Source of the DNA: Flavobacteriaceae bacterium
Lineage (GTDB): Bacteria; Bacteroidota; Bacteroidia; Flavobacteriales; Flavobacteriaceae
Assembly (NCBI GenBank): GCA_965224465.1
Contig: OZ245049.1
Coordinates: 3,300,001-3,332,000 of the forward strand
DNA: 32,000 nt
Direction of reading: 5' to 3'
This document shows positions 1,280-22,234 of this stretch, piece by piece (the first letter of the stretch is position 1; each line of letters starts with the position of its first letter). Under the pieces are notes generated by a model that worked only from the letters and a program-made list of their open reading frames with translations, ran no database searches and had not been told where the DNA came from. Made by a program: the position numbers and the translations under genes.

Positions 1280-1300
1280 CGTTGTAAAATATTAGGTCTA

Positions 1301-1308
1301 CAAAGTTA
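1301..1308 (-). promoter_or_regulatory. Candidate Bacteroidetes -7 box for the nuclease gene
   Basis: Plus-strand caaagtta is TAACTTTG on the minus strand and matches TAnnTTTG. It sits ~21 nt upstream of the ATG at 1279. I found no well-spaced -33 TTG. Confidence 0.3.
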
Positions 1309-1353
1309 TGAACAAAAGTCGAACTGTGATTGTTTTTTACTTCTAAATTACAA

Positions 1354-1381
1354 TTGAACATGTTAATAAGTTGTAAATTTG
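1354..1381 (+). promoter_or_regulatory. Candidate Bacteroidetes sigma-A promoter for module 1
   Basis: TTG at 1354..1356 and TAAATTTG at 1374..1381 with a 17-nt spacer match the TTG / TAnnTTTG consensus. It is 46 nt upstream of the ATG at 1427. Confidence 0.45.
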
Positions 1382-1426
1382 CAAAGCAATAAAAAGTTGC
1401 AATCAAACATTTTTATCAATTCAAAT

Positions 1427-4147: not shown

Positions 4148-4174
4148 TAAAAAAATTAAATAAAATATTCAACA

Positions 4175-6868: not shown

Positions 6869-6896
6869 ATAGTTTTATTCATCTAAAAACAATGAT

Positions 6897-6923
6897 AAAA
6901 GGCGGCCAATTGGTCGCCTTTTT
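6897..6923 (+). terminator. Rho-independent terminator after module 1
   Basis: aaaaGGCGGCCaattGGTCGCCttttt. The GC-rich 7-8 bp stem has one G-U wobble and a 4-nt loop, and is followed by a T5 tract. It sits 29 nt after the stop at 6868. Confidence 0.7.
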
Positions 6924-7027
6924 ACGTGTTTAGGAAAGAGTAAAAAACAAACAAATATTTTTTAATTCGCTTCTTTTCTGTAACTTATAAAAAATTGCAA
7001 CCCCTTTTTAATTTTTAATTGCGAATT

Positions 7028-9751
7028 ATGAAAGAAATAATGAGTGTATTGCTCATCTGTTTGTGCGTGAATACATCTGTAAACGCACAGTCACGATGTA
7101 GTGTAAAAGGGATGGTGATTAGTGAGCGGTCAAATGCACCTTTATTGGGAGTGACAGTTCAAATCTTAGAAACATCTATATCGGACACTAGCAATGTGAA
7201 AGGGGAATTTAATCTCAAAAAATGTACCGCTGGAAAACAGGTGCTTAAGGTTCAATTACAAGGTTTTGAATCTTTAAAAGTTACGGTGTATTGCGTAGAA
7301 GGCAAAGAAATAGACCTTGGTTTTTTGGTCTTATCTAGAATGGTTGATGTATTGAACCAAGGAAGTGTTATTGCTATTTCAGAACTAGAGTTGTTAGATG
7401 ATGAAGGAACTGCTGATAATGTTTCTGGGGTGCTATCTGCTTCTAAAGATGCCTTTTCTAGAGCTGCCGCCTACAGTTTTGGTCAGGCGTGGTTTCGGGT
7501 TCGGGGTTATGACTCTAGATATGCGACAGTGATGATCAATGGTATTACAATGAATAAAATGTATGGTGGTCGTCCACAGTGGAGTAATTGGGGAGGTTTG
7601 AATGATGCGACCAGAAATCAAGAAGTTACTTTTGGATTGGCGCTCTCAGAGACTACTTTTGGAGATCTCGTAGGAACTACTAATATGATTACCACTGCCT
7701 CTCTGTATCGTCCTGGTACAAAAGTTACCGTTTCTGCGAGCAATAAAAGTTATAAAGGAAGGCTGATGGTGACATACGCTTCTGGCTTAAAAAACAAATG
7801 GGCCTATGTAGTTTCTGCCTCGAGACGATTTGCCAAAGAAGGCTATTTTCAAGGCTCGTATTATGATGCAAATTCCTTTTTTACATCCGTAGAATATCAA
7901 CCTAGCGCCAAACAGCATTTTAATTTAACGGCTATTTATGCTCAAAATAAACGAGGTAAAAATTCAGGACATACACAGGAAGTATGGGACTTGATGGGAA
8001 GAAAATACAATGCGTATTGGGGGCGTCAGGAAGGAAAAAAAAGAAATGCAAGAGTAAAGGAAGTAAGCGAACCTATAGTCATGTTGTCACATCAATTACA
8101 GTTCACAAATAAAACGGAGCTAAATACAAGTGTTGCATATCAATTTGGACATATAGGAAATAGCAGATTGGGCTATTATAAACAACAAAATCCAGACCCG
8201 ACGTATTATCGAAACCTACCGAGTTATTTTCAAGCAAACGACCCCCTAAATCCGGATATTGTCTCAGAAACAGTAAGCGCTTTTAAACAGGATGCTCATA
8301 GAAATCAGATTGATTGGCTAGACTTATATAAAACAAATAATGCCTTACAGAACCAAAATGCGGGGTATTATTTATATGAAGATAGAAATACGGATAGACA
8401 ATGGAGTGTACAAAGTGTTATGTCTACAGCATTGACCGAATATGCGAGTGTAAATTTAGGCTTGCGTTTTGTGAATTTTAAGAGTCAAAATTACGCAAAA
8501 ATGCTAGGTCTTTTAGGCGCTTCTTATTTTATGGATAGGGATGGTTTTAATAATACGTCCAATAACTTATTGTCAGATAATCCCATTTTAAAAGGGGATA
8601 AATTTAGGTATTACTATCTATTGTCAGTTCACAAAAATAGTATTTTTGGACAGTATCAATATCAAAAAAACAAGATAGATGCCTTTGCTTCTGCCCAATT
8701 CATAAATACTACCTATCAGCGAGAAGGACGGTTTCAAAACGAATTGTACAAGGAGAATTCATTGGGTTTGGGTAAAAAAACAACATTCGATACGCCACAG
8801 CTTAAAATGGGTATTACGTATAAAATTACTGGCCGTCATTTGTTAAGTCTAAATGCAGCAAGCATCTCTAAAGCGCCTACTTTACGGAATAGTTATTCCA
8901 ATGCTCGTGTGAATAATGATGTGGTTTTGAACCTAGAAAACGAGAAAATAAACACGGTAGATATTGGCTATATTCACAGGTCTCCTTTGATAAAATCCCG
9001 TATAACGGGCTATTATACGTCTTTTTCAAAAGGAAGCAAGATTTCAAGATATTACGACCAGAATTTAGGGGAGTTTGTAGCAGAAGTTTTGACGGATATA
9101 GAAAAAATTCATTGTGGTGTTGAAGTGAGTTTTGAATGCAAAATTAGCAGCGCGGTAAACGCTACTTTTGTAGCTGCTATTGGGAATTATACGTATGCTA
9201 ACAATCCTCAAAGTTATTATACTTCGGATCAGTCTTTGCTGGGGGCTGTAAATCCTGTTCCTACTTTTTTAAAGGGCTATCGTACTGCTGGTACGCCTCA
9301 ACAAGCTTTTTCTTTGGGAGTAGATTACCGTTCTCAAAATTATTGGTGGCTTGGAATAAATGCCAATCATTTATCACATACGTATGTAGATGTCGCTGCA
9401 GGCTTGCGAACGGAGCGTTTTTATACAAACCCTGTAACCAACCAATTGTATGCCAATGTGACAATGCAAGATGTGAAAGATATTTTAGTGCAAGAGCAGT
9501 TTGATAGCTATGTTCTTGTAAATATTATTGGTGGGAAATCTTGGAAGGTCAAAAAAAAGTATATCAGTTTGTTTATAAGTGCTAGTAATGTGCTGAATAC
9601 GAACTATAAAACGGGGGGTTATGAACAAGGAAGGTATGGGAATTATACATTATTAAAAAAAGATAAAGAAAGAGCAACTCCCATGTTTGGTGCTAAATAT
9701 TGGATGGGATATGGCTACTCGTATTACCTTAATCTATCGGTAAGTTTTTAG
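7028..9751 (+). CDS. CarboxypepD_reg-domain TonB-dependent-receptor-like outer-membrane barrel (paralog 2)
   Basis: The track ORF starts at TTG 7019; the first ATG is at 7028 (MKEIMSVLLICLCVNTSVNAQ). It is collinear with 1427..4147 and shares long identical runs such as GRPQWSNWGGLNDATRNQEVT, ITGRHL and TAGTPQQA. It ends ...YLNLSVSF. Confidence 0.8.
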   Translation: MKEIMSVLLICLCVNTSVNAQSRCSVKGMVISERSNAPLLGVTVQILETSISDTSNVKGEFNLKKCTAGKQVLKVQLQGFESLKVTVYCVEGKEIDLGFLVLSRMVDVLNQGSVIAISELELLDDEGTADNVSGVLSASKDAFSRAAAYSFGQAWFRVRGYDSRYATVMINGITMNKMYGGRPQWSNWGGLNDATRNQEVTFGLALSETTFGDLVGTTNMITTASLYRPGTKVTVSASNKSYKGRLMVTYASGLKNKWAYVVSASRRFAKEGYFQGSYYDANSFFTSVEYQPSAKQHFNLTAIYAQNKRGKNSGHTQEVWDLMGRKYNAYWGRQEGKKRNARVKEVSEPIVMLSHQLQFTNKTELNTSVAYQFGHIGNSRLGYYKQQNPDPTYYRNLPSYFQANDPLNPDIVSETVSAFKQDAHRNQIDWLDLYKTNNALQNQNAGYYLYEDRNTDRQWSVQSVMSTALTEYASVNLGLRFVNFKSQNYAKMLGLLGASYFMDRDGFNNTSNNLLSDNPILKGDKFRYYYLLSVHKNSIFGQYQYQKNKIDAFASAQFINTTYQREGRFQNELYKENSLGLGKKTTFDTPQLKMGITYKITGRHLLSLNAASISKAPTLRNSYSNARVNNDVVLNLENEKINTVDIGYIHRSPLIKSRITGYYTSFSKGSKISRYYDQNLGEFVAEVLTDIEKIHCGVEVSFECKISSAVNATFVAAIGNYTYANNPQSYYTSDQSLLGAVNPVPTFLKGYRTAGTPQQAFSLGVDYRSQNYWWLGINANHLSHTYVDVAAGLRTERFYTNPVTNQLYANVTMQDVKDILVQEQFDSYVLVNIIGGKSWKVKKKYISLFISASNVLNTNYKTGGYEQGRYGNYTLLKKDKERATPMFGAKYWMGYGYSYYLNLSVSF

Positions 9752-9768
9752 AATTTAAAGAAAATGTG

Positions 9769-12447
9769 ATGAAAAGATATAGAATGTTTTTTTTAGGCTT
9801 GATAATTTTATGTTTTTCTACATGTGTGGAGGATCAAAATTTTAAGACACCTGAAACTACGTGTATTCCACCAGTTTTGAAAGTAAATGCAACCATTGGA
9901 GAGGTGAAATCACTTTATAAAGGTACGGTAACACAAATTAAAGAAAAATTAATTATTGAAGGTTATGTGATTTCCTCAGATCTAAAAGGGAACTTTTATA
10001 GAACGTTGCACTTTCAAAATAGCCCAGATAATCCTACGGATGGTTTACAGTTAGATGTTGATATGCAACAGATGTACACAATGTATCCAGTAGGGAGTAA
10101 AATCATTATAAATACCCAAGGGTTGTATATTGATAATTACCATGGTGTACTAAAAATAGGAGGATTGTATCCGAAGTTTGGTGGTGGGGTTGGAGTTGGG
10201 CGCTTGTCTAGTGTATTGGCAAAAAAAGTAGTGCTTGTATCCTGTGATCCTCCAGTAAAAATAATTCCTAGACTTGTGAAAATTGAGGACTTAGATGATG
10301 CCATGATTCATACTCTTATTAAATTTGACAAGGTAGAAATTGCACCAGATTCACAGTGTCAGTCGTATGCTTTAGCTTCCAAAAACACCAGTGTTTTTGT
10401 ACGTGATTGTGAAGGGAATAGTATTGTTTTAAGAACTAGTGGCTATGCCGATTTTCAATCCGAATTGTTACCAGTGGGTAGTGGAGAATTACATGCAATT
10501 TTAGGAAAGTATAATGATAAGTTTCAAGTGACAATCCGTGATACCAAAGACCTAAACTTTGAGGGTGATCGATGTAATGGGGAGCATTTTACCTGTGTGG
10601 CTCCTACTGTGAATACTACAATACAGGATGTTAAAAACAAGTATCAAGGATCCTTATTACAGTTGAAAGAATCTCTTGTTTTTGAAGGGGTAGTAACGGC
10701 AAATGATAAAAGTGGGAATGCGTATAAGTACATATATGTACAGGATAAAACGGGAGGAATAAAAATTAAGATCAATCAAAAAGAATTGTATTTACGGGGG
10801 TTTAGTATCGGAAAAAAAATAGTAGTTGTATCTCAAGATTTGTACATCGATTCGCTTAGTGGAGAATTACAACTTGGCGGTTTATACGAAGGGAATTTAG
10901 GCAATATAGAGCGCTATGACATATTTAAACATTTTTTTGTAAGTGATAAAACAGTTGTTTTAATGCCTGAAAATTTAATGTTAAATGAGCTGTCAATGGA
11001 GGAAATTGGACGTTTTATACGGATTGATAAGGTACAGTTTATGGAGAAGGAATTGAATTTTGTAAGCGAAAAATCGAATGGATCTACACGTACCTTGGTG
11101 GATTGTATGGCAAATACGATTGATGTTCGAACCAGTAAATATGCTAATTTTGCAAAGGCGAAACTTCCATCAAAAATGGGAGCGGTGCAAGGGGTGCTCG
11201 GTTTTTATAATGGGAATTTTCAATTGTTTTTTCGAGATATTAATGATGTAAAATTGATGACAGAAGAACCCTGCAATGCCGTCGAAAATGGAAAATTTGT
11301 TACGGTGTCCGAAGTTCGGGATATGTTTTCAGGTTCGGTATTGAACAGCATTCAAAATATAAAAATAAAAGCTGTGATTACCTCGAATGCAGCTGAATTG
11401 AATATCACAGAAATTAGTGCTTTTATACAAGATAAAACAGCTGCTATTGCGCTTCGTTTTAGTAGTGCTCATGGCTTGAAATTCGGAGATGAAGTGGAAC
11501 TTTCTTTATTGGGTGCTAGTTTGGAAGAGTATAAAGGATTGTTACAGTTAAATCATATTCCAGTGGCGAATATTATCAGTACTCAGCCAGGTTTTTTACC
11601 GAGTCCGAAAACAATTACGCTGCCGCAAGCCTTGACTGGGGATTTCGAATCTATGTTGGTTAGGATCAAAAAAATTCAATTTAAAGATGTAGGAAAAACG
11701 TATAAAGGAGAGAATAAAATCACAGATTGTGTGAACGATTTAAATGTATATGTGCGTTATCAGTCCTTGTTTTCTGGGTTTAAAGTGAATGGGAAAAATG
11801 GTGATGTTACTGGGATTATGACGCAGTATGAAGTGCCACAACTCTATCTTAGAAAATCTTATGATGTTACTTTTTATGATGATTATATAGACTGTGCTTC
11901 GGTAGGAACTGTTGATTTTCCGCTTTTTATTTCAGAGATAGCAGACCCCAATAATAATTCTGGAGCGCGATTTATAGAACTGTACAATTCCTCCAGCGAT
12001 GTACAAAGTATGAATGGATGGCAGTTAAAACGGTATACAAATGCAAATACAACGAGTACAAAAAGCATTCAATTAGAAGGCTACACGATTCCTGCCAATA
12101 GTGCTTTTGTGATTTCTCCAAATGCATCAGAATTTTTGAAGATGTATGGATTTGAACCTGATTTAGGAGTTTCAAAAGGAGGTCCTGCAGATTCTAATGG
12201 AGACGATACCATTGTCTTATTAAATCCTACTGGTGAGGTGGTGGATATTTTTGGACGAATTGGGGAGGATGGTTCTGGAACCAATCACGAGTTTGAGGAT
12301 GGACGTGCTTTAAGAAATAAAAGTGTAGAGGTAGGAAATGCTGTTTTTAGCTTTTCAGAATGGACTGTTTGGAACGATACAGGTGCTGCGAATACAATAA
12401 AAGAACCACAAAATGCTCCCGATGATTTTAGCCCTGGAATTCGGTAA
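9769..12447 (+). CDS. Lipoprotein with three DUF5689-type repeats and a C-terminal lamin-tail domain (paralog 2)
   Basis: The track ORF starts at GTG 9766; ATG is at 9769. Lipobox ILCFSTC. It has the same three-repeat plus LTD layout as 4175..6868 (VNATIGEVKSLY, VNTTIQDVKNKY, VTVSEVRDMF; LFISEIADPNNNSGARFIELYNSS...NGDDTIVL). Confidence 0.75.
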   Translation: MKRYRMFFLGLIILCFSTCVEDQNFKTPETTCIPPVLKVNATIGEVKSLYKGTVTQIKEKLIIEGYVISSDLKGNFYRTLHFQNSPDNPTDGLQLDVDMQQMYTMYPVGSKIIINTQGLYIDNYHGVLKIGGLYPKFGGGVGVGRLSSVLAKKVVLVSCDPPVKIIPRLVKIEDLDDAMIHTLIKFDKVEIAPDSQCQSYALASKNTSVFVRDCEGNSIVLRTSGYADFQSELLPVGSGELHAILGKYNDKFQVTIRDTKDLNFEGDRCNGEHFTCVAPTVNTTIQDVKNKYQGSLLQLKESLVFEGVVTANDKSGNAYKYIYVQDKTGGIKIKINQKELYLRGFSIGKKIVVVSQDLYIDSLSGELQLGGLYEGNLGNIERYDIFKHFFVSDKTVVLMPENLMLNELSMEEIGRFIRIDKVQFMEKELNFVSEKSNGSTRTLVDCMANTIDVRTSKYANFAKAKLPSKMGAVQGVLGFYNGNFQLFFRDINDVKLMTEEPCNAVENGKFVTVSEVRDMFSGSVLNSIQNIKIKAVITSNAAELNITEISAFIQDKTAAIALRFSSAHGLKFGDEVELSLLGASLEEYKGLLQLNHIPVANIISTQPGFLPSPKTITLPQALTGDFESMLVRIKKIQFKDVGKTYKGENKITDCVNDLNVYVRYQSLFSGFKVNGKNGDVTGIMTQYEVPQLYLRKSYDVTFYDDYIDCASVGTVDFPLFISEIADPNNNSGARFIELYNSSSDVQSMNGWQLKRYTNANTTSTKSIQLEGYTIPANSAFVISPNASEFLKMYGFEPDLGVSKGGPADSNGDDTIVLLNPTGEVVDIFGRIGEDGSGTNHEFEDGRALRNKSVEVGNAVFSFSEWTVWNDTGAANTIKEPQNAPDDFSPGIR

Positions 12448-12792: not shown

Positions 12793-13062
12793 TTAGATGA
12801 TTGATCACAGTTGTTGACTGGGAATGTTTTCAAGATATCATTGAGAACATTTACAAGAAAAAACGGTTAATTAAGAGCCATACGGTTACGAGTTTGTTTT
12901 ATGCTCCGTTAAATTAAACGGCACCGAAAAACCGTTAATTTGGTTTTAGTAAATAAAAAGACAGAAAAATCAACGATTTGACTTAGGCATAATTTAACGT
13001 TTATTCTATAAATGATATACGAAACAGCATGTTTGAACCGTTATATGTCTTTAAAATAAAAA

Positions 13063-13434
13063 ATGGGAAAAATTAAAATTAAGAGCTCGACTGTAGCAAA
13101 AATAATTATTGACAAAAAAGGATATGGAACAATAAAAAATGAAAATAAGGAATATGAGATAGAAAATGGACAACACGAAATTTATGCTAAATCTGCTTGG
13201 TGTGGTAGTCAAAAAATAACAGTAAATATTACAGATGATAAAATTATAACATTGACTCTAAATAGTTTTAAAAATGAAGGTATTGTTAAAGCTGTATTTA
13301 TGTTATTAGCTGGACTTCTTATATTTACTAAAAACGTAATCTTCGGGATAATTGCAGGGGTAGTGTTTTTGTATCCATTATATTATGTAACAATTGGAAA
13401 AGATAAATATTTAGAATTAGTTGAGATTACATAA
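13063..13434 (+). CDS. Hypothetical small membrane protein
   Basis: 123-aa ORF with ATG preceded by an A-rich leader. The soluble N-half is followed by two hydrophobic stretches (AVFMLLAGLLIF, IFGIIAGVVFLYPLYYV). I recognise no family. Confidence 0.5.
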   Translation: MGKIKIKSSTVAKIIIDKKGYGTIKNENKEYEIENGQHEIYAKSAWCGSQKITVNITDDKIITLTLNSFKNEGIVKAVFMLLAGLLIFTKNVIFGIIAGVVFLYPLYYVTIGKDKYLELVEIT

Positions 13435-13582
13435 TATAATTAAATATTGGGTAGTGTCAACCATGAACTCAAAATCCCTGCTCTCGATTGTTTCGTGTGG
13501 TTTTAGGAGCTTAAGAGTACTTAAAACGAATTCTTTTACTAAAAATAATTAAATTGGTAGTATGCAGATTGTATATCTTTTG

Positions 13583-13590
13583 TATATTTG
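13583..13590 (+). promoter_or_regulatory. Candidate -7 box upstream of the tssD-like gene
   Basis: TATATTTG is a perfect TAnnTTTG. The nearest upstream TTG (13554..13556) is 26 nt away, which is longer than usual. The box lies ~185 nt upstream of the ATG at 13774. Confidence 0.25.
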
Positions 13591-13773
13591 GAAAATGTTA
13601 TATAACGTATGCGTGTTACTGTATTAGAATTAAATACAGAATACACGGCATTAACGTAGTGTAGCTATCACGGATATACCTTAATTTTAGAGGGATTGTG
13701 GATGTATTTGGGTTGCAACAAGACTGCTAACACAAACGGCATAAAAAAACAAACAAACAAACAAAACAAAATA

Positions 13774-14460
13774 ATGAGTTTTAAACTTAAAGTATTTATT
13801 GATGGAGAAGAAAGTAATGTATTAAGATATAACTTAAATTTAAGTCAAAGTTCTGACATTACAGGAAGACCTACTCAAAAACCTGTCTTACAAAAACTTT
13901 TATTAGTGTTAGAATCTAACAATAAAATTGATTTGATGCAGTGGATGATTTCTCCAAATCAAACTAAACAAATAGAACTGCACATTCAAGAACGACAAGG
14001 AGAAAGAACAAGAATTCTTTACTTTTCGGATGTTAACTTAGTCGGTTTAGAAACCACATTTTCTGCTACAGGAAATATACCTATGACAGATAATTTACAG
14101 ATTACTGCTGCAGGGCTCAATACAAACAATTCTGCTGTTGAATATTCTGCATCTTGGAGAACTACTTTTCCTGAACAAGAAGCAGAAGTAACAACTATTG
14201 AGCAAGAAAGAAAAATAACTAGTTATTACTTAACGAATACAGAAAATAATAAGATAGAAGATTATAATATTGATGATATTATATTGTTGAATATTAAAAC
14301 TGAAAATCGAATAGGAGATGTAATGACCATCAACTTAAATGATAAAAAGCATGATTTTGAATATAACGGAATTATCTTAGAGAACGATACTCTTAAAAAC
14401 ATTAAAATTGAAAATAATTTAGAACAAATTGAGTTAAAAGTAGTAGCTCAAACAGTATAA
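13774..14460 (+). CDS. tssD: Type VI secretion tube protein TssD/Hcp-like with a ~100-aa C-terminal extension
   Basis: The track ORF starts at TTG 13696; ATG 13774 follows an A/C-rich leader. The N-terminal ~128 aa follow the Bacteroidetes TssD pattern as I recall it: MSFKLKVFIDGEESNVLRYNLNLSQSSDITGRPTQKP, LESNNKIDLMQWMISPNQTK, YFSDVNLVGLETTF, IPMTDNLQITAAGL, ...SASW. Residues ~129-228 (14158..14457) are extra. Confidence 0.65.
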   Translation: MSFKLKVFIDGEESNVLRYNLNLSQSSDITGRPTQKPVLQKLLLVLESNNKIDLMQWMISPNQTKQIELHIQERQGERTRILYFSDVNLVGLETTFSATGNIPMTDNLQITAAGLNTNNSAVEYSASWRTTFPEQEAEVTTIEQERKITSYYLTNTENNKIEDYNIDDIILLNIKTENRIGDVMTINLNDKKHDFEYNGIILENDTLKNIKIENNLEQIELKVVAQTV

Positions 14461-14464
14461 ACGT

Positions 14465-16078
14465 ATGAAAAAAACAGGATTTACCATCTCATTTGAAGAC
14501 GGAGAAACGTTAACAAGATATTTAACACCAGTATTACAAGCAGAATATATAGTTGCCATAAAACCAAAAGATTTTGATGGAAGTTATGGAATAGATTGGT
14601 GTGAAATGAGTACTGACCTTACAAAAATTGAAAAATTTCAAGAAACCAATGTAGCAGATATTAGCCACGTTCTAGATAAAGCTACAACACAATTTAAGGC
14701 TAGCCCAACAACTCAAGATAAACAAAATTATGTCCGAGACTTATATGTTTTTGAAAGTTATTACGGAAAAGAGATGCCTATTACTTGGGTAAACTTAGCC
14801 TACGATAAGGTAGCAACTTTAGAGATAACGCCTTTGTTAATAAATGGTAAAAGGAATAAAAAAACAGATTTTTTAACCATTGAGAAAAATGACAATTTTA
14901 AAATATCATACAAGGGGACTACTGATGAAGACAGTAATCCGAATATAAAAATAGAAAAACTGAAAGATGGCAAAGCTCAAGAAATTGAAATTACAGCGTT
15001 AAAAACTTTTTCTCAAGCGCAAGAAATAATTATAAAAGATTATTTAGGAAAAGAAGTCGGAAAAATAGAAATGGTAGCTAATGATGTGCTAGATTTAAAT
15101 GTGAAAATTATTCCAGTAGTACTCAATCATACTTCACAAGTAGCAGATGCTCAAAATATATATGCTGCTGCAATAAAAGCAGAAAACATTGATAAGGATA
15201 GTCTAAAAACAACATTACAAACTAAATCATTTAACCAAACAGGTGTAAACTGTATTATAGAACCCCTAAAAGCTATTCCAGAATGCATAGTAATAGATGT
15301 TACTAAAGACAATTGGAGTGAGTTTTATAAAGGAGGCATATTTCAAAATTGGGATTATTCCAGTACAACGGTAAAACCTATTGTTTCTAAAGATGAAGAT
15401 GGAGATAAACGCTATCATACTAGAGATATGGGGACGGAACGTTTTTTACTTGATAAATTAGAAGATCATTATTATAAAAAATACGGAAAAAATCATAAGG
15501 GAGCCTTGGTTTTTGTTACAGATAAAAATTATATAATTCCAAATTTACAAGGCTATTCGCAAACAGACCCTATACGAAGCCAAGGAACAGTTATATTTAA
15601 ACCTGGTTTAGGTGATGCTACTGTTTATGCGCACGAATTAGGGCATATGTTAGGACTTGAACATAACTTTGTTAATGATATTAATGAACTTACAAGCATA
15701 AATGATAACTTAAATAATTTAACACGCAACAAAAGTGTTGCCGATAAAAAACAAGAAATCGAAGAAGATATAGCTTTTAAAGAAAATTATATTAAAGTAG
15801 ATATAGAAAAAATAAACGATTTGAAAACGGTACGTGAACAATCACAATCTATAAAAAATAAAATTTTAGATATCCAAGAAGCAATTAAAAACACTCAAAA
15901 TTCTATCATCCAACTAAAGGATAAATTACAAAGAATAGATATTAAAACTACTACAGCTAATTTTAAAGTAACAAAAGGTAAATCTAAAAACTATATGGAT
16001 TATATAAATAACAGAACTTTTTTTAGTAAATATCAATCCCAAATAGTAAAAGAGGAGCTTATTAAATTTTATATATGA
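14465..16078 (+). CDS. Putative T6SS-associated polymorphic effector with a metzincin-type zinc metallopeptidase domain
   Basis: 537 aa with no signal peptide (MKKTGFTISFEDGETL). The ATG lies 5 nt after the tssD-like stop. The zinc motif HELGHMLGLEH (15632..15664) is HExxHxxGxxH. The Met-turn-like NYMDY (15989..16003) resembles the M43 ulilysin/pappalysin flavour. The stop overlaps the next ATG (ATGA at 16075..16078). Confidence 0.7.
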   Translation: MKKTGFTISFEDGETLTRYLTPVLQAEYIVAIKPKDFDGSYGIDWCEMSTDLTKIEKFQETNVADISHVLDKATTQFKASPTTQDKQNYVRDLYVFESYYGKEMPITWVNLAYDKVATLEITPLLINGKRNKKTDFLTIEKNDNFKISYKGTTDEDSNPNIKIEKLKDGKAQEIEITALKTFSQAQEIIIKDYLGKEVGKIEMVANDVLDLNVKIIPVVLNHTSQVADAQNIYAAAIKAENIDKDSLKTTLQTKSFNQTGVNCIIEPLKAIPECIVIDVTKDNWSEFYKGGIFQNWDYSSTTVKPIVSKDEDGDKRYHTRDMGTERFLLDKLEDHYYKKYGKNHKGALVFVTDKNYIIPNLQGYSQTDPIRSQGTVIFKPGLGDATVYAHELGHMLGLEHNFVNDINELTSINDNLNNLTRNKSVADKKQEIEEDIAFKENYIKVDIEKINDLKTVREQSQSIKNKILDIQEAIKNTQNSIIQLKDKLQRIDIKTTTANFKVTKGKSKNYMDYINNRTFFSKYQSQIVKEELIKFYI

Positions 16079-16094
16079 AAACAATAAGTATTTT
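15491..16094 (+). repeat. Exact 604-nt direct repeat, copy 1 (expressed effector 3' third plus first 20 nt of the downstream gene)
   Basis: Block-by-block comparison with 17861..18464 shows no mismatch, with an offset of exactly 2370 nt. Identity starts at aatcataagggagcc. It ends at 16095 (t) versus 18465 (a). Confidence 0.9.
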
Positions 16095-16656
16095 TAAAAA
16101 GATTAGTTTACTATATGTTTTTATAGTTTTTGTTTCTTGTAGTTCTTCTATGGTGCTTAAGTACAATACTATACCTGCTGGGGGGGTTGCTTACAAGCAA
16201 CTTGATGTTTTTGGAGGATATATATGGCACAGAGATAAAAAAGGAAAAATTAATATTAATAAAAAAAATCTTCAAAATATTTACATAATTACTAAAAATG
16301 GTAATGAAGACTATTTTGAATTTTTAGAGAGTTATTCTTTTTTTTTATGCAGTCATAGTGATAAACGTCGTATCGCTAAGAGTTTAAATTTTTCAGAAAG
16401 AACTTTGGTTGCAGCTTATTGTGTAGAGTATCTTTATAAATGTCAAAAAGAAATTAGTGAAAGTAATATGTATAAAAATTACAGGTTAGTTAGACTTTTT
16501 TTGAGAACAGATAACGGCGATAGTAACAAGTACAATCGAGAGTTCAAAAAACACGATTACTACGGTTTAAAATTATTAAAAAAACACCATTTAAAACATT
16601 ATAAATATTTCCCGGATTTAGATACAATACGCTATAAAAAAAGTATTAGTGATTAA
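16075..16656 (+). CDS. Lipoprotein, putative immunity protein I1
   Basis: 193 aa with lipoprotein signal MKTISIFKKISLLYVFIVFVSC. It is translationally coupled to the effector (ATGA). It shares the invariant C-terminal tail NKYNREFKKHDYYGLKLLKKHHLKHYKYFPDLDTIRYKKSISD with six downstream paralogs. Confidence 0.7.
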   Translation: MKTISIFKKISLLYVFIVFVSCSSSMVLKYNTIPAGGVAYKQLDVFGGYIWHRDKKGKININKKNLQNIYIITKNGNEDYFEFLESYSFFLCSHSDKRRIAKSLNFSERTLVAAYCVEYLYKCQKEISESNMYKNYRLVRLFLRTDNGDSNKYNREFKKHDYYGLKLLKKHHLKHYKYFPDLDTIRYKKSISD

Positions 16657-16679
16657 AGATGTAGGGTTAATGCTTCTCT

Positions 16680-17270
16680 AATCATAAGGGAGCCTTGGTT
16701 TTTGTTACAGATAAAAATTATATAATTCCAAATTTACAAGGCTATTCGCAAACAGACCCTATACGAAGCCAAGGAACAGTTATATTTAAACCTGGTTTAG
16801 GTGATGCTACTGTTTATGCGCACGAATTAGGGCATATGTTAGGACTTGAACATAACTTTGTTAAAGATTTTAAAGATCTTACAAGCATAAATGATGACTT
16901 AAATAATTTAACACGCAACAAAAGTGTTGCCGATAAAAAACAAGAAATCGAAGAAGATATAGCTTTTAAAGAAAACTATATAAATGATGATATAAAAAAA
17001 GTAGAAGAATTAAAAGTTAAAGATAAACTATCAGAAAAAGAAAAAAAAGAACTGCAGGGATTACAAGAAAATATTGATGAAACAGAAAAATCTATTCAGA
17101 AATTAAGAAATAGGTCACAAAAGATAGATGTACAAACCACTGTAGCTAATTTGAAAGTAGCTGAAGGAAAAACTAAAAACTATATGGACTATATAAGTAA
17201 TAGAATTTATTTTGCTAAATACCAAGCAGAAATAGTGAAGAAAGAAGTTGTCGATTTTTATCAAAAATAA
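16680..17270 (+). pseudogene. Start-less effector C-terminal cassette B (orphan/silent toxin module, divergent variant)
   Basis: It is homologous to effector codons ~343-537. The first ~184 nt are identical to 15491.., and it diverges after ~300 nt. It keeps HELGHMLGLEH and NYMDY. An in-frame TAA lies 4 codons upstream of the homology start and there is no ATG. The M at 16695 in the track is a TTG that encodes Leu in the full-length gene. Confidence 0.8.
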
Positions 17271-17279
17271 AATAAGATT

Positions 17280-17837
17280 ATGAATTTTATAAAAAGAAGT
17301 AGTTCTCTTCTTATTGTTTTATGTTTGTTTTTTTCATGCACTACATATAAAAAAATAACAGAAGAGAGTTTAATTGATGAAACATTTCCTGACATCAATG
17401 TTTATGGTGGGTTTTTATGGTCTAAGAAAAAAAATAAGACTATATTAATTCATTACAAAAATTTGAAACGAATAATTAAATTAACAAAAAAAAGTGATAA
17501 TATTTTTTTTTCTGATTTAGAATTATACCTGTTGTTTCTGTCAAAAAAGAGAAAAGAGATAGCTAAAAACATTAACTTTTCTGAGCGAGCGTACATTGCG
17601 GGGCATATTGTAGATTGTTTGTATAAGTGTCAAGAAAAATTAAATAAAAACGATAGGTATAAAAACAAGGAATTTATTTATCGATTATTGTCTCCGTGGG
17701 ATAGTAACAAGTACAATCGAGAGTTCAAAAAACACGATTACTACGGTTTAAAATTATTAAAAAAACACCATTTAAAACATTATAAATATTTCCCGGATTT
17801 AGATACAATACGCTATAAAAAAAGTATTAGTGATTAA
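17280..17837 (+). CDS. Lipoprotein, putative immunity protein I2 (most divergent N-terminal two thirds)
   Basis: 185 aa with lipobox LCLFFSC. The ATG lies 9 nt after the cassette B stop. It has the same invariant C-terminal tail as I1. Confidence 0.7.
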   Translation: MNFIKRSSSLLIVLCLFFSCTTYKKITEESLIDETFPDINVYGGFLWSKKKNKTILIHYKNLKRIIKLTKKSDNIFFSDLELYLLFLSKKRKEIAKNINFSERAYIAGHIVDCLYKCQEKLNKNDRYKNKEFIYRLLSPWDSNKYNREFKKHDYYGLKLLKKHHLKHYKYFPDLDTIRYKKSISD

Positions 17838-17860
17838 AGGTGTAGGGTTAATGCTTCTCT

Positions 17861-18448
17861 AATCATAAGGGAGCCTTGGTTTTTGTTACAGATAAAAATT
17901 ATATAATTCCAAATTTACAAGGCTATTCGCAAACAGACCCTATACGAAGCCAAGGAACAGTTATATTTAAACCTGGTTTAGGTGATGCTACTGTTTATGC
18001 GCACGAATTAGGGCATATGTTAGGACTTGAACATAACTTTGTTAATGATATTAATGAACTTACAAGCATAAATGATAACTTAAATAATTTAACACGCAAC
18101 AAAAGTGTTGCCGATAAAAAACAAGAAATCGAAGAAGATATAGCTTTTAAAGAAAATTATATTAAAGTAGATATAGAAAAAATAAACGATTTGAAAACGG
18201 TACGTGAACAATCACAATCTATAAAAAATAAAATTTTAGATATCCAAGAAGCAATTAAAAACACTCAAAATTCTATCATCCAACTAAAGGATAAATTACA
18301 AAGAATAGATATTAAAACTACTACAGCTAATTTTAAAGTAACAAAAGGTAAATCTAAAAACTATATGGATTATATAAATAACAGAACTTTTTTTAGTAAA
18401 TATCAATCCCAAATAGTAAAAGAGGAGCTTATTAAATTTTATATATGA
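17861..18448 (+). pseudogene. Start-less effector C-terminal cassette A' (identical to the expressed effector 3' third)
   Basis: It is 100% identical to 15491..16078 and is preceded by the unit-end motif ...gttaatgcttctct. There is no ATG; the track start at 17876 is the same internal TTG (Leu). Its stop overlaps the next ATG at 18445..18448. Confidence 0.8.
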
Positions 18449-18464
18449 AAACAATAAGTATTTT
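17861..18464 (+). repeat. Exact 604-nt direct repeat, copy 2
   Basis: See 15491..16094. Confidence 0.9.
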
Positions 18465-19020
18465 AAAAAAGATTAGTGTATTCTTTATTTTTGTTTTGGT
18501 TGTTTCTTGTAAACCTACAAAAACACTAAAATCTAACACGATAATAAAAGGTGCCTCTACCTATGAACAACTTAATAAGTTTGGAGAATATATATGGTTC
18601 AAGGATTCAAAAGGAAAAGTTAATATTAATAAAAAAAATCTTCAAAACATTTATACAATTACTAAAAATGGTAATGAAGAATATTTTTATTTTTTAACAT
18701 CCTACTCTTATCTTTTAGTTGTTGATAAATCAAATATTGCTAAGAGTTTAAATTTTTCAGAAAGAACTTTGCTTGCAGCTTATTGTGTAGAAAACCTCTA
18801 TAAATGTCAAAAAGAAATTAGTGAAAACAATATGTATAAAAATTACAGGTTTGTTAGACTTTTTTTGAGAACAGATAACGGCGATAGTAACAAGTACAAT
18901 CGAGAGTTCAAAAAACACGATTACTACGGTTTAAAATTATTAAAAAAACACCATTTAAAACATTATAAATATTTCCCGGATTTAGATACAATACGCTATA
19001 AAAAAAGTATTAGTGATTAA
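18445..19020 (+). CDS. Lipoprotein, putative immunity protein I3
   Basis: 191 aa with lipobox FVLVVSC. ATGA overlap with cassette A'. Invariant C-terminal tail. Confidence 0.7.
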   Translation: MKTISILKKISVFFIFVLVVSCKPTKTLKSNTIIKGASTYEQLNKFGEYIWFKDSKGKVNINKKNLQNIYTITKNGNEEYFYFLTSYSYLLVVDKSNIAKSLNFSERTLLAAYCVENLYKCQKEISENNMYKNYRFVRLFLRTDNGDSNKYNREFKKHDYYGLKLLKKHHLKHYKYFPDLDTIRYKKSISD

Positions 19021-19175
19021 AGGTGTAGGGTTAATGCTTCTCTAATCAAATGTGTAGTGTGATTTATGTTAGTTTAAGTAATACTAAAGCTAGTTCTAGA
19101 AATGTAATCCACTTAGAATAAGAAAGTTTACTTTAGAATCAATTATTATAAGTTACCTGAAATTAAATGGGGACT

Positions 19176-19228
19176 GTAAATATCAATCCCAAATTGTAAA
19201 AGAGGAGGTCATTAAATTTTATAAATGA
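19176..19228 (+). pseudogene. 53-nt vestige of the effector 3' end (unit 1)
   Basis: gtaaatatcaatcccaaattgtaaaagaggaggtcattaaattttataaatga matches effector 16026..16078 (gtaaatatcaatcccaaatagtaaaagaggagcttattaaattttatatatga). The ATGA overlap with the next gene is retained. An in-frame stop lies upstream. Confidence 0.8.
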
Positions 19229-19800
19229 AAACAGTAAATAATTTAAAAAAGATAGGTGTATTCTTTATTTTTGGTTTGGTTGTTTCTTGTAAAACTACAA
19301 AAACACTAAAATATAGTACTTTGATAAAAGGAGAGTCAGTTTACAAGAGATTTGATGTTTTTGGAGGATATATATGGCACAGAGATAAAACAGGGAAAAT
19401 TAATATTAACAAAAAAAATCTTCAAAATATTTACATAATTACTAAAGGAGGAAATGACGCGTTTTTTGAATATCTAGATCTTTATACACGACATTTATGT
19501 GGGCATAAACGGCGTGTTTCTAATAGTTTAAATTTTCCAGAAAGAACCTTAGTTGTTGCTTATTGCGTTGAGTATCTTTATAAATGTCAAAAAGAAATTA
19601 GTAAAAATAATATGTATAAAAATTATAAGTTTGTTTATCGTTTTTTGAGAACAGATAACGGCGATAGTAACAAGTACAATAGAGAATTAAAAAAACACGA
19701 TTACTACGGTTTAAAATTATTAAAAAAACACCATTTAAAACATTATAAATATTTCCCGGATTTAGATACAATACGCTATAAAAAAAGTATTAGTGATTAA
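19225..19800 (+). CDS. Lipoprotein, putative orphan immunity protein I4
   Basis: 191 aa with lipobox FGLVVSC and the invariant tail (REL instead of REF at its start). Confidence 0.7.
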   Translation: MKTVNNLKKIGVFFIFGLVVSCKTTKTLKYSTLIKGESVYKRFDVFGGYIWHRDKTGKININKKNLQNIYIITKGGNDAFFEYLDLYTRHLCGHKRRVSNSLNFPERTLVVAYCVEYLYKCQKEISKNNMYKNYKFVYRFLRTDNGDSNKYNRELKKHDYYGLKLLKKHHLKHYKYFPDLDTIRYKKSISD

Positions 19801-19955
19801 AGGTGTAGGGTTAATGCTTCTCTAATCAAATGTGTAGTGTGATTTATGTTAGTTTAAGTAATACTAAAGCTAGTTCTAGAAATCTAATCCCCTTAGAGTA
19901 AGAAAGTTTACTTTAGAATCAATTATTATAAGTTGCCTGAAATTAAATGGGGATT

Positions 19956-20008
19956 GTAAATATCAAGCCCAAATTGTAAAAGAGGAGTTAATTAAATTTT
20001 ATAGATGA
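19956..20008 (+). pseudogene. 53-nt vestige of the effector 3' end (unit 2)
   Basis: It occupies the same position and has near-identical sequence to 19176..19228. Confidence 0.8.
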
Positions 20009-20580
20009 AAACAATAAATAATTTAAAAAAGATAGGTGTATTCTTTATTTTTGGTTTGGTTGTTTCTTGTAAAACTACAAAAACACTAAAATCTGCTACC
20101 ATAATAACAGGGGAATCTATTTACGACCAATTTGACAATTTTGGAGAATATATATGGTACAGAGATAAAAAAGGAAAAATTAATATTAACAAAAAAAATC
20201 TTAAAGAAATTTATAATATCACTAAAAAAGGAAATGAAGAATCTTTTGAATTTTTACAGAGTTACACCTTGCATTTAAGTAGTGATAAACGTCGTGTCGC
20301 TAAAGGTTTAAACTTTTCAGAAAGAACCTTGGTTGCTGCTTATTGCGTAGAGTACCTCTACAAGTGTGAAAAAGAAATTAGCAAAGAAAATATGTATAAA
20401 AATTATAGGTTTGTTAGACGCTTTTTGAGACCATATGGTAGCGATATAAATAACTACAATCGAGAATTAAAAAAACACGATTACTACGGTTTAAAATTAT
20501 TAAAAAAACACCATTTAAAACATTATAAATATTTCCCGGATTTAGATACAATACGCTATAAAAAAAGTATTAGTGATTAA
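20005..20580 (+). CDS. Lipoprotein, putative orphan immunity protein I5
   Basis: 191 aa with lipobox FGLVVSC. The middle is variable (…RFLRPYGSDINNYNREL…) and the tail is invariant. Confidence 0.7.
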   Translation: MKTINNLKKIGVFFIFGLVVSCKTTKTLKSATIITGESIYDQFDNFGEYIWYRDKKGKININKKNLKEIYNITKKGNEESFEFLQSYTLHLSSDKRRVAKGLNFSERTLVAAYCVEYLYKCEKEISKENMYKNYRFVRRFLRPYGSDINNYNRELKKHDYYGLKLLKKHHLKHYKYFPDLDTIRYKKSISD

Positions 20581-20735
20581 AGGTGTAGGGTTAATGCTTC
20601 TCTAATTAAATGTGTAGTGTGATTTATGTTAGTTTACGTAATACTAAAGCTAGTTCTAGAAATTTAATCCCCTTAGAATAAGAAAGTTTATTTTAGAATC
20701 AATTATTATAAGTTGCCTGAAATTAAATGGGGACT

Positions 20736-20788
20736 GTAAATATCAATCTCAAATAGTAAAAGAGGAGTTAATTAAATTTTATAAATGA
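20736..20788 (+). pseudogene. 53-nt vestige of the effector 3' end (unit 3)
   Basis: It occupies the same position and has near-identical sequence to 19176..19228. Confidence 0.8.
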
Positions 20789-21351
20789 AAACAATAAATA
20801 ATTTTAAAAAGATAAGTGTATTCTTTATTTTTGTTTTGGTTGTTTCTTGTAAACCTACAAAAACACTAAAATCTAATACCGAAATTATAGGGAGATCTGC
20901 TTATGACGAGTATAATGCTTTTGGAGAATATATATGGTATAGAGATAGTAAAGGGGGAATTAGTATTAATAAAAAAAATCTCAAAAAAATTTATGCAATG
21001 ACTAAAAAAGGAAATATAGAATATTTTGAATTTTTAGAGGGTTATACTGCACATTTAAGTAGGGATAAACGGCGTGTTGCTAAAAGTTTGAATTTTTCAG
21101 AAATAACTTTTGTTACAGCTTATTGTGTAGAGAACCTCTATAAGTGTCAAAAAGTAATTAGCAAAAATAATTTCTTTAAAAAGTATAAATTTGTTAATCG
21201 TTTTTTAGGAGTAAATATTAACAAGTACAATCGAGAGTTCAAAAAACACGATTACTACGGTTTAAAATTATTAAAAAAACACCATTTAAAACATTATAAA
21301 TATTTCCCGGATTTAGATACAATACGCTATAAAAAAAGTATTAGTGATTAA
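20785..21351 (+). CDS. Lipoprotein, putative orphan immunity protein I6
   Basis: 188 aa with lipobox FVLVVSC. It has a 3-codon deletion relative to its paralogs just before the invariant tail. Confidence 0.7.
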   Translation: MKTINNFKKISVFFIFVLVVSCKPTKTLKSNTEIIGRSAYDEYNAFGEYIWYRDSKGGISINKKNLKKIYAMTKKGNIEYFEFLEGYTAHLSRDKRRVAKSLNFSEITFVTAYCVENLYKCQKVISKNNFFKKYKFVNRFLGVNINKYNREFKKHDYYGLKLLKKHHLKHYKYFPDLDTIRYKKSISD

Positions 21352-21506
21352 AGGTTTAGGGTTAATGCTTCTCTAATCAAATGTGTAGTGTGATTTATGT
21401 TAGTTTACGTAATACTAAAGCTAGTTCTAGAAATCTAATCCCTTTAGAATAAGAAAGTTTATTTTAGAATCAATTATTATAAGTTGCCTGAAATTAAATG
21501 GGGACT

Positions 21507-21559
21507 GTAAATATCAATCCCAAATTGTAAAAGAGGAGGTCATTAAATTTTATATATGA
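21507..21559 (+). pseudogene. 53-nt vestige of the effector 3' end (unit 4)
   Basis: It occupies the same position and has near-identical sequence to 19176..19228. Confidence 0.8.
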
Positions 21560-22131
21560 AAACAATAAATAATTTTATAAAGATAAGTGTATTCTTTGTT
21601 TTTGTTTTGGTTGTTTCTTGTAAACCTACAAAAACACTAAAATCTAACACGATAATAAAAGGTGCCTCTACCTATGAACAACTTAATAAGTTTGGAGAAT
21701 ATATATGGTTCAAGGATTCAAAAGGAAAAGTTAATATTAATAAGAAAAATCTCGAAAAAATTCATATAATCTCGAAAAAAGGGAATATAGAATATTTTAA
21801 TCTTTTAACATCTTACTCTTATCTTTTAGATGTTGATAAATCAAATATTGCTAAAAGTTTAAATTTTTCAGAAAGAACTTTGGTTGTAGCTTATTGTGTA
21901 GAATGCCTCTATAAATGTCAAAAAGAAATTAGTAAAAACAATATGTATAAAAATTATAAGTTTGTTTATCGTTTTTTGAGAACAGATAACGGCGATAGTA
22001 ACAAGTACAATCGAGAGTTCAAAAAACACGATTACTACGGTTTAAAATTATTAAAAAAACACCATTTAAAACATTATAAATATTTCCCGGATTTAGATAC
22101 AATACGCTATAAAAAAAGTATTAGTGATTAA
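21556..22131 (+). CDS. Lipoprotein, putative orphan immunity protein I7 (mosaic of I3-, I6- and I4-like segments)
   Basis: 191 aa with lipobox FVLVVSC. 21621..21750 is nucleotide-identical to the matching part of I3 (18511..18640). The C-terminal half matches I4 (SKNNMYKNYKFVYRFLRTDNGDSNKYNRE). Confidence 0.7.
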   Translation: MKTINNFIKISVFFVFVLVVSCKPTKTLKSNTIIKGASTYEQLNKFGEYIWFKDSKGKVNINKKNLEKIHIISKKGNIEYFNLLTSYSYLLDVDKSNIAKSLNFSERTLVVAYCVECLYKCQKEISKNNMYKNYKFVYRFLRTDNGDSNKYNREFKKHDYYGLKLLKKHHLKHYKYFPDLDTIRYKKSISD

Positions 22132-22197
22132 AGGTGTAGGGTTAATGTCTCGTAGTTAGATAGTTGTCTAAGTGTTGTGTTTGTGCTTTTTAATTTG

Positions 22198-22234
22198 GTA
22201 AGTTATAAAAAACCTAGTGTAACTTACTTGTTTT
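22198..22234 (+). terminator. Weak terminator-like hairpin after the array
   Basis: gtaagtta (22198..22205) pairs with taacttac (22220..22227) in a perfect 8-bp AT-rich stem with a 14-nt loop. It is followed by ttgtttt. The stem is weak, so confidence is low. Confidence 0.3.

Follow-up and report, generated by a model that had tools for sequence, protein, structure and literature searches.

The question raised by this locus is whether a long helical segment between the zinc site and the Met-turn of a metzincin-like toxin is also the part by which the toxin varies and by which its immunity protein recognizes it. The locus lies in a window of 32,000 nucleotides from a Flavobacteriaceae bacterium (GenBank assembly GCA_965224465.1, contig OZ245049.1, positions 3,300,001 to 3,332,000, forward strand), and coordinates below refer to this window. 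The gene concerned is an open reading frame (ORF) of 537 residues at 14465–16078 on the plus strand. It encodes a predicted cargo effector of a type VI secretion system (T6SS) without a signal peptide, its N-terminus (MKKTGFTISFEDGE) being non-hydrophobic. The catalytic domain of the effector belongs to the metzincin clan and carries a true, unusually large insertion; the variable part of the protein begins midway through that insertion. The parts of the effector are the following.

14465–16078, plus strand: full effector, an N-terminal beta-sandwich region followed by the metzincin catalytic domain (ORF; homologues).
14465–15076, plus strand: N-terminal all-beta region, residues 1–204, presumed loading or trafficking module (secondary structure in AlphaFold2 (AF2) models; Foldseek matches to immunoglobulin-like (Ig-like) and beta-sandwich folds).
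15077–15631, plus strand: N-terminal subdomain of the catalytic domain, residues 205–389, a beta-sheet with a backing helix (AF2 pLDDT (predicted local distance difference test) 86–98; Foldseek matches to ADAMTS-4, -5 and -1 at probability 1.00).
15632–15664, plus strand: zinc-binding motif HELGHMLGLEH, residues 390–400 (sequence; conservation).
15680–15961, plus strand: predicted helical insert, residues 406–499, comprising a short helix (406–420) and a hairpin (425–454 and 461–499) (AF2; heptad test).
15491–15793, plus strand: 5′ homology arm common to the effector and the orphan tips, residues 343–443 (blastn, DNA alignment, synonymous divergence (dS)).
15794–16075, plus strand: polymorphic part of the tip, residues 444–537, with the distal hairpin, the putative Met-turn and the C-terminal helix (segment identities; nonsynonymous divergence (dN) 0.37 and dS 0.81 between tips A and B).
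15989–16003, plus strand: NYMDY, residues 509–513 (conservation; in-silico substitution M511A).
16028–16072, plus strand: C-terminal helix, residues 522–536, with a near-invariant Q524 (AF2; alignment of 83 relatives).

The third zinc ligand, His400, is encoded at 15662–15664 and Met511 of NYMDY at 15995–15997, with Tyr513 at Met+2. Locating the motifs in the ORF confirmed the positions given for both residues in the initial annotation, and its account of the segment between them was also correct: H400 and N509 are separated by 108 residues that lack Cys and Pro, include a single Gly (G505) and have a high share of K, I, N, D and E. After H400 the sequence continues as NFVNDINE, in which Asn401 is followed by a family-specific Phe402. 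Among relatives, the residue after the third His is N, T, V or S. Adamalysins, astacins and serralysins are marked at this place by an Asp, Glu or Pro, which the effector lacks. It represents a distinct metzincin family, outside M12B, M12A and M10 and probably outside M43.

A homologue search returned 33 proteins, all from Flavobacteriaceae and at best 57% identical, and a representative search gave 234 clusters. H390, E391, H394, G397, H400, N509, M511, D512 and Y513 were invariant in 24 close homologues. Across 83 diverse relatives, H390, E391, H394, G397, H400 and D512 remained invariant, with N509, M511, Y513, F402 and Q524 conserved at 90% or more.

The native protein scored under the cut-off of every Pfam model, including the M43, M10, DUF4953 ('Met-zincin') and reprolysin models. 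The top match, to Peptidase_M43, reached 20.6 bits against a cut-off of 23 (E 4.5e-4) and covered only residues 385–442; Reprolysin_4 reached 17.1–18.2 bits, with a cut-off of 22. An NCBIfam search gave nothing useful. When the insert was deleted in silico, Reprolysin_4 rose to 26.1 bits, above its cut-off, and the alignment now took in NYMDY and reached into the C-terminal helix. When the final 42 residues were truncated or scrambled, 8–9 bits were lost and Reprolysin_4 fell back to about 17–18 bits. The in-silico substitution M511A cost 3.4 bits with Reprolysin_4 and 3.9 bits with DUF4953, from which it follows that M511 is matched to the conserved Met of either profile.

Searches against the PDB pointed in the same direction. 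With an insert-deleted family profile, 60 of the 60 best matches were metzincins (ADAMTS-5, serralysins, karilysin, fragilysin, mirolysin, adamalysin, astacin, pappalysin, archaemetzincin and matrix metalloproteinases), with modest E-values (at least 3.6e-4) and alignments centred on the zinc motif that stopped near it and did not place the Met-turn. A single-sequence search likewise matched metzincins only, with alignments ending near the zinc motif.

In a Foldseek search with the full-length model, Ig-like matches to the N-terminal beta-sandwiches dominated, and the catalytic domain was therefore remodelled alone, using AF2 on residues 205–537 with an alignment of 83 sequences. This model had a pLDDT of 91.2 and a predicted template modelling score (pTM) of 0.89. 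Its top 27 Foldseek matches in the PDB were all catalytic domains of ADAMTS-4, -5 and -1 (probability 0.96–1.00), followed by archaemetzincin and Bacteroides M64-like peptidases. The template modelling (TM) scores were low, 0.23–0.41, because of the inserts. The order of secondary structure in the model fits a metzincin, with a beta-sheet, a backing helix, the active-site helix and a C-terminal helix after the Met-turn. Around NYMDY, pLDDT was below 50 in the first AF2 model (about residues 502–516) and about 90 in the second (504–514). The metzincin fold proposed earlier was thus supported by Foldseek and profile searches. NYMDY, likewise proposed as the Met-turn, probably is one: the motif is conserved, some relatives present it after a spacer of only 19–28 residues, and the profiles register the loss of M511. 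The effector is a putative active protease.

The segment between zinc site and Met-turn was modelled as a folded element. Both AF2 models contained a short helix (406–420) followed by long helices at 425–454 and 461–496/499, joined by a six-residue loop. In the better model the two long helices (425–454 and 461–499) form an antiparallel hairpin with pLDDT 90–98, so that the helical hairpin or coiled coil suggested initially is confidently predicted. The heptad-like character ascribed to the whole insert held for part of it. A hydrophobic a/d pattern was significant in helix 461–496 (tip A, p=0.0025; tip B, p=0.0015), whereas helix 425–454 gave marginal values (p=0.085 and 0.037, respectively); across the whole insert in a single register it was not significant.

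The insert is no chance feature, being present in 24 of 24 close homologues. A wider survey considered the 134 family representatives that carry both a zinc motif and a Met motif. The distance from the third His to the Met was bimodal, being 19–28 residues in 5 and 61–202 (median about 113) in 129, while none of the 134 fell at 30–60 residues. Pro and Gly made up 4.0% of the spacer and 9.2% of these proteins elsewhere. Conservation across orthologues was 0.47–0.50 in the insert and 0.62 in the core. The insert is a true and unusually large insertion that typifies most of the effector family.

To our knowledge, spacers of 61–202 residues exceed the spacings of other metzincins (8–63 residues, from an incomplete literature check). 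The third His and the Met are about 45 residues apart in astacin and about 52 in ulilysin. In cytophagalysin H241 and M284 are 43 residues apart (PMC11674741), in agreement with the 40–60 residues quoted in the initial annotation, and the connector of archaemetzincin has 7 residues (HEXXHXXGXXHCX4CXM; PMC3427221). Relative to known metzincins, whose connector measures 8–60 residues, the models indicate that the connector is enlarged by about 90 residues in the form of a short helix and a heptad-patterned hairpin. The hairpin is predicted to emerge from the C-terminal subdomain of the enzyme, leaving the zinc site, the Met-turn, Tyr513 and the C-terminal helix intact. In Chryseobacterium jejuense (locus L014), tandem effectors of the superfamily at 485–2509 and 3290–4585 have spacers of 164 and 19 residues, a natural pair in which to ask what the insert does.

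Whether the insert is also the variable part was addressed with the copies of the effector's 3′ end (tips) and the lipoprotein genes that follow the effector.

16075–16656, plus strand: immunity-like lipoprotein A1, its start overlapping the effector stop (signal peptide and lipobox Cys; homologues downstream in loci L001–L008).
16680–17270, plus strand: orphan tip B, without the N-terminal half (ORF 16695–17270; blastn, alignments).
17280–17837, plus strand: immunity-like lipoprotein B, the divergent paralogue (ORF, paralogue comparison).
17861–18448, plus strand: orphan tip A2 (ORF 17876–18448), its protein identical to the expressed tip (blastn, alignments).
18445–19020, plus strand: immunity-like lipoprotein A2 (ORF, paralogue comparison).
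19225–22131, plus strand: four orphan immunity-like genes (19225–19800, 20005–20580, 20785–21351 and 21556–22131), each preceded by a 204-nucleotide spacer.

Homology between the expressed gene and the orphan tips starts at 15491, near residue 343 (blastn, DNA alignment). Cys is absent from the tip. In DNA, the expressed tip (A) and tip B are identical up to about 15684, with 7 differences in codons 404–443 (15674–15793). At the protein level, identity was 100% over residues 348–403, 88% over 404–443 (the first half of the insert), 33% over 444–494, 64% over 495–508, 100% in NYMDY (509–513) and 57% over 514–536. The tips had been described as identical up to the zinc site, divergent almost throughout the insert and convergent again at K.YMDY. 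The first of these statements stands. Divergence sets in from about residue 444, and the renewed identity is complete in NYMDY and falls off again in the 23 residues that follow. To equate the insert with the variable part is half right, since what varies is the insert's distal half and, besides it, the C-terminal helix. The image of a constant core with a grafted variable insert is too tidy for the same locus: the boundary of the variable part lies mid-insert, at a step in dS.

Between tips A and B, dS was 0 over residues 348–403, 0.11 over 404–443, 0.78 over 444–496 and 1.65 over 514–536. Given this step in dS, with about 0.1 before it and about 0.8 after it, the switch near residue 444 is a recombination breakpoint, separating a homogenised 5′ arm from an anciently diverged 3′ part, and not a domain boundary. 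The ratio dN/dS was 0.67 in the distal hairpin (444–496) and 0.15 in the C-terminal helix (514–536). Residues were identical between the tips at 8 of 13 heptad a/d positions and at 10 of 34 other positions (p=0.054); substitutions favour the exposed heptad positions. A further orphan tip fragment lies 3′ of the effector–immunity pair in the homologous locus L001 (11149–11616). It has kept the zinc motif and the C-terminal helix and lost the insert and NxMDY; it is a decayed cassette, and it did not replicate the mid-insert breakpoint.

The seven paralogous lipoprotein genes downstream of the effector share an invariant C-terminus of 43 residues. Over the variable part of the mature protein, the partner of tip B shares 33% identity with the six A-type copies, which are 57–87% identical among themselves. 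Orphan tip A2 matches the expressed tip exactly, but lipoprotein A2 is only 74% identical to A1 in this part and 87% identical to the last orphan (21556). Either one tip is covered by more than one immunity variant, or gene conversion has copied the tip in recent times. The 204-nucleotide spacers before the four trailing genes (19021–19224, 19801–20004, 20581–20784 and 21352–21555) are near-identical to one another, and each consists of about 23–25 nucleotides of the orphan-tip junction, about 125 nucleotides of unrelated filler and the last 48 or so nucleotides of a tip gene. By this structure, the four orphan immunity genes look like tip-deleted cassettes. In a Mantel-type test, immunity divergence correlated with divergence of effector residues 444–537 at r=0.88 and with that of the core at r=0.73, values that are confounded by phylogeny and contribute little. 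The locus shows several marks of a polymorphic toxin, namely a downstream immunity-like gene, orphan tips with common 5′ homology and co-variation of tip and immunity gene; the lipoproteins are candidate immunity proteins.

The gene upstream of the effector suggests how it might be delivered.

13696–14460, plus strand: Hcp (TssD, Bacteroidota type), likely true start near 13774 (Pfam PF17642, E 2.9e-25, residues 27–154).

The Hcp gene adjoins the effector, and the same gene lies 5′ of the effector in L001–L006. Its product has a C-terminal extension of about 100 residues without a family match, which may be an adaptor that loads the effector. The order Hcp with extension, effector and lipoprotein recurs in Aquimarina, Tenacibaculum, Algibacter and uncultured Flavobacteriaceae, where the downstream genes are homologous to those found here. 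In the Chryseobacterium and Flavobacterium clades with spacers of 164–210 residues, the downstream genes are unrelated, in line with the joint exchange of tip and immunity gene proposed below. Some relatives of the effector are fused to VgrG (P0024, PF04717) or to TssD/Hcp (P0066). Long N-terminal extensions of P0035 and P0043 were read as VgrG-like, and the N-termini of P0081 and P0104 appeared PAAR-like by eye. Hcp linkage, the fusions of relatives and the lack of a Sec signal thus identify the effector as a predicted cargo of the Bacteroidota T6SS of subtype iii (T6SS-iii). A protease secreted by the type IX secretion system or through Sec was considered and rejected, as the protein has neither a signal peptide nor a C-terminal sorting domain and its gene is linked to Hcp.

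The reading favoured here, whose chances we would put at about even, is that of a T6SS-iii metzincin cargo effector in which the distal hairpin and the C-terminal helix are read by the cognate immunity protein and are swapped together with the immunity gene. What is observed in this reading comprises motifs and fold, the helical insert, the mosaic pattern and the order of the genes; protease activity, action in the periplasm, immunity by the lipoproteins and specificity set by the hairpin are inferred. Because the partner genes encode lipoproteins, the effector would be delivered into the periplasm of neighbouring cells, and in kin cells it would be neutralised by the lipoprotein encoded directly downstream. 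The exposed face of the distal hairpin, with the C-terminal helix, would form a polymorphic surface for recognition by the cognate immunity protein. Homologous recombination would exchange distal hairpin, Met-turn and C-terminal helix in one piece with the variable part of the immunity gene, using a 5′ arm of about 300 bp (15491 to about 15793, ending mid-insert) and, as the 3′ arm, the invariant end of the immunity genes. Immunity specificity would change in this way while the catalytic machinery stayed untouched. That the hairpin serves as an immunity or target determinant, as was first suggested, is plausible. The support is circumstantial, consisting of the pairing of tips with immunity genes, the raised dN/dS, the substitutions at exposed heptad positions and the slightly stronger correlation of immunity divergence with residues 444–537.

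Several points weigh against the proposal that the hairpin is read by the immunity protein. The latter could instead block the active-site cleft without touching the hairpin. The variable segment also spans residues 495–508 and the C-terminal helix, while the first half of the insert is nearly constant, so that insert and variable part overlap only partly. The boundary of the variable part lies where it does because of a recombination site (dS 0–0.1 to 0.8), and the case for a functional meaning of that position is weakened accordingly. A dN/dS of 0.67 fits relaxed constraint as well as it fits diversifying selection. The gap between r=0.88 and r=0.73 is modest, confounded by phylogeny and driven largely by the tip A/tip B pair. 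Finally, tip A and orphan tip A2 are the same protein, but in the variable part the lipoproteins that accompany them share only 74% identity.

Some of these points suit another reading, one that we regard as rather unlikely: the insert would be a tolerated and largely neutral expansion, serving stability or solubility, loading or oligomerisation, with specificity residing in the C-terminal helix or the cleft. Its apparent variability would then come from weak constraint and from its position 3′ of the breakpoint that the dS pattern marks. The 88% identity of the first half of the insert, the divergence of the C-terminal helix as well, the low-complexity, helix-prone composition and a conservation only moderately below that of the core would all be in keeping with such an expansion. 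Retention of the insert in 129 of 134 representatives argues for a different conclusion, as do the conserved hydrophobic a/d core and the very high model confidence, which indicate a folded and selected element.

It is unlikely that the hairpin is instead an exosite for substrate or target, binding an envelope or periplasmic protein or acting as a reach spacer, with variation that tracks targets and immunity determined elsewhere. The insert does arise from the C-terminal subdomain, the part of a metzincin that borders the substrate cleft from below (PMC11674741 for the subdomain architecture). The heptad pattern would permit protein–protein docking, and insert lengths of 61–202 residues across clades are what adaptation to differing targets might give. 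Nevertheless, tips A and B occur in one genome, each with its own lipoprotein gene, and this is the signature of toxin–immunity pairing and not of target diversity. Least likely of the three, and highly improbable, is that NYMDY is no Met-turn and the domain some other zincin or an inactive scaffold: sub-threshold native Pfam and NCBIfam scores, PDB profile alignments ending near the zinc motif, TM-scores of 0.23–0.41 and the poor first model around 502–516 could be read that way, but structure and profile matches are metzincins only, M511 is worth 3.4–3.9 bits in two metzincin profiles, N, M, D and Y are invariant or nearly so with Tyr at Met+2 as in astacins and pappalysins, the motif lies 19–28 residues past the third His in relatives whose spacer is short, and pLDDT there is about 90 in the second model.

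The surroundings of the locus were also inspected. The Hcp–effector–immunity island (13000–22200) has a guanine-plus-cytosine content of 0.24–0.30, compared with 0.33–0.39 in the flanking genes. It sits between a DUF5689/LTD gene and housekeeping genes of the mgtE, ksgA and serS type, remote from any core T6SS genes in the window. Just 5′ of Hcp, an ORF of 123 residues (13063–13434) has a hydrophobic C-terminal half and no family match. The region 221–12447 holds an Exo_endo_phos_3 gene on the minus strand followed by four ORFs of about 900 residues on the plus strand. The first and fourth of these were scanned, the first being TonB-dependent-receptor-like (CarboxypepD_reg and Plug) and the fourth containing DUF5689 and lamin-tail domains; the region may be a nucleic-acid or polymer uptake locus. 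An Rfam scan of the window found no RNA family.

Orphan cassettes in polymorphic toxins are already known, as are metallopeptidase toxins (PMC3482391). The present case differs by a metzincin family outside the curated models, a very long helical connector and a cassette junction within a catalytic domain, although the family may have been named earlier, the literature check being incomplete. More broadly, and only tentatively, the effectors may form an undescribed metzincin family dedicated to the Bacteroidota T6SS, in which the coiled-coil hairpin is a modular immunity-specificity exosite rewritten from silent cassettes. If so, a new family would join a well-studied clan, and the connector between third ligand and Met-turn would be able to absorb a folded module of 90–180 residues. 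Contact-dependent toxins would then diversify immunity specificity inside a single catalytic domain, unlike the common mode in which entire toxin domains are swapped, as one constant enzyme is kept. The family occurs in marine and fish-associated Flavobacteriaceae (among them Tenacibaculum, Aquimarina and Flavobacterium psychrophilum), in which hardly any T6SS-iii effector has been characterised. Because a single locus offers tips A and B along with seven natural immunity paralogues, the part of the toxin read by immunity would be directly testable.

Among known enzymes, the ADAMTS/adamalysin group (reprolysins, M12B) is the best structural match. It has HEXXHXXGXXH in common with the effector, and Reprolysin_4 is the best profile once the insert is removed. 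In adamalysin and ADAMTS enzymes the Met lies about 14 residues past the third His, whereas in the effector it lies 111 residues past it. The effector also lacks the Asp after the third His, the disulfides and the CIM-type Met-turn, and it has Tyr at Met+2; its Pfam score passes the cut-off only after artificial removal of the insert.

Tyr at Met+2 is the 'tyrosine switch' position, seen as SIMHY in astacin and as M284/Y286 in cytophagalysin (PMC9848320, PMC11674741). It is common to the effector, the pappalysins (M43: ulilysin, mirolysin, cytophagalysin) and the astacins (M12A), and it is found in serralysins as well. Cytophagalysin is also of Bacteroidota origin, like the effector. Pappalysins and astacins differ in their spacer of about 43–52 residues without a helical hairpin and in being Sec-secreted zymogens with prosegments. 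As to astacins in particular, EXXRXDRD is absent from the effector, its motif is NYMDY and not SIMHY, and Astacin is not among its Pfam matches.

The colicin DNases E2, E7, E8 and E9, with their immunity (Im) proteins, combine a conserved catalytic centre with an adjacent variable surface that sets immunity specificity. The effector may be analogous to this DNase 'exosite' in concept; fold and enzyme are unrelated, and colicin immunity is cytoplasmic and involves no helical insertion. The C-terminal metallopeptidase of Pseudomonas aeruginosa VgrG2b is delivered by a T6SS to the periplasm and is neutralised there by a periplasmic immunity protein. It is fused to VgrG and belongs to a proteobacterial T6SS-i, and we know of no report of a long helical insert or a cassette array for it. 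VgrG2b was absent from the top 50 Foldseek matches of the domain model in the PDB.

The closest parallel in gene organisation is with the polymorphic toxins of the Rhs, contact-dependent inhibition (CDI) and T6SS types (PMC3482391). Of the metallopeptidase toxins treated in that work (Tox-MPTase1-5, HopH1, ALF and PVC-MPTase), none is described there with an extended HExxHxxGxxH/Met-turn signature. Polymorphic toxins resemble the present system in their constant N-terminal delivery part, variable toxin end and adjoining immunity gene, and in having silent cassettes of tips, equipped with homology arms, and additional orphan immunity genes. They differ in the place of the junction, which here falls inside the catalytic domain, midway through the insert, so that both tips make the same enzyme.

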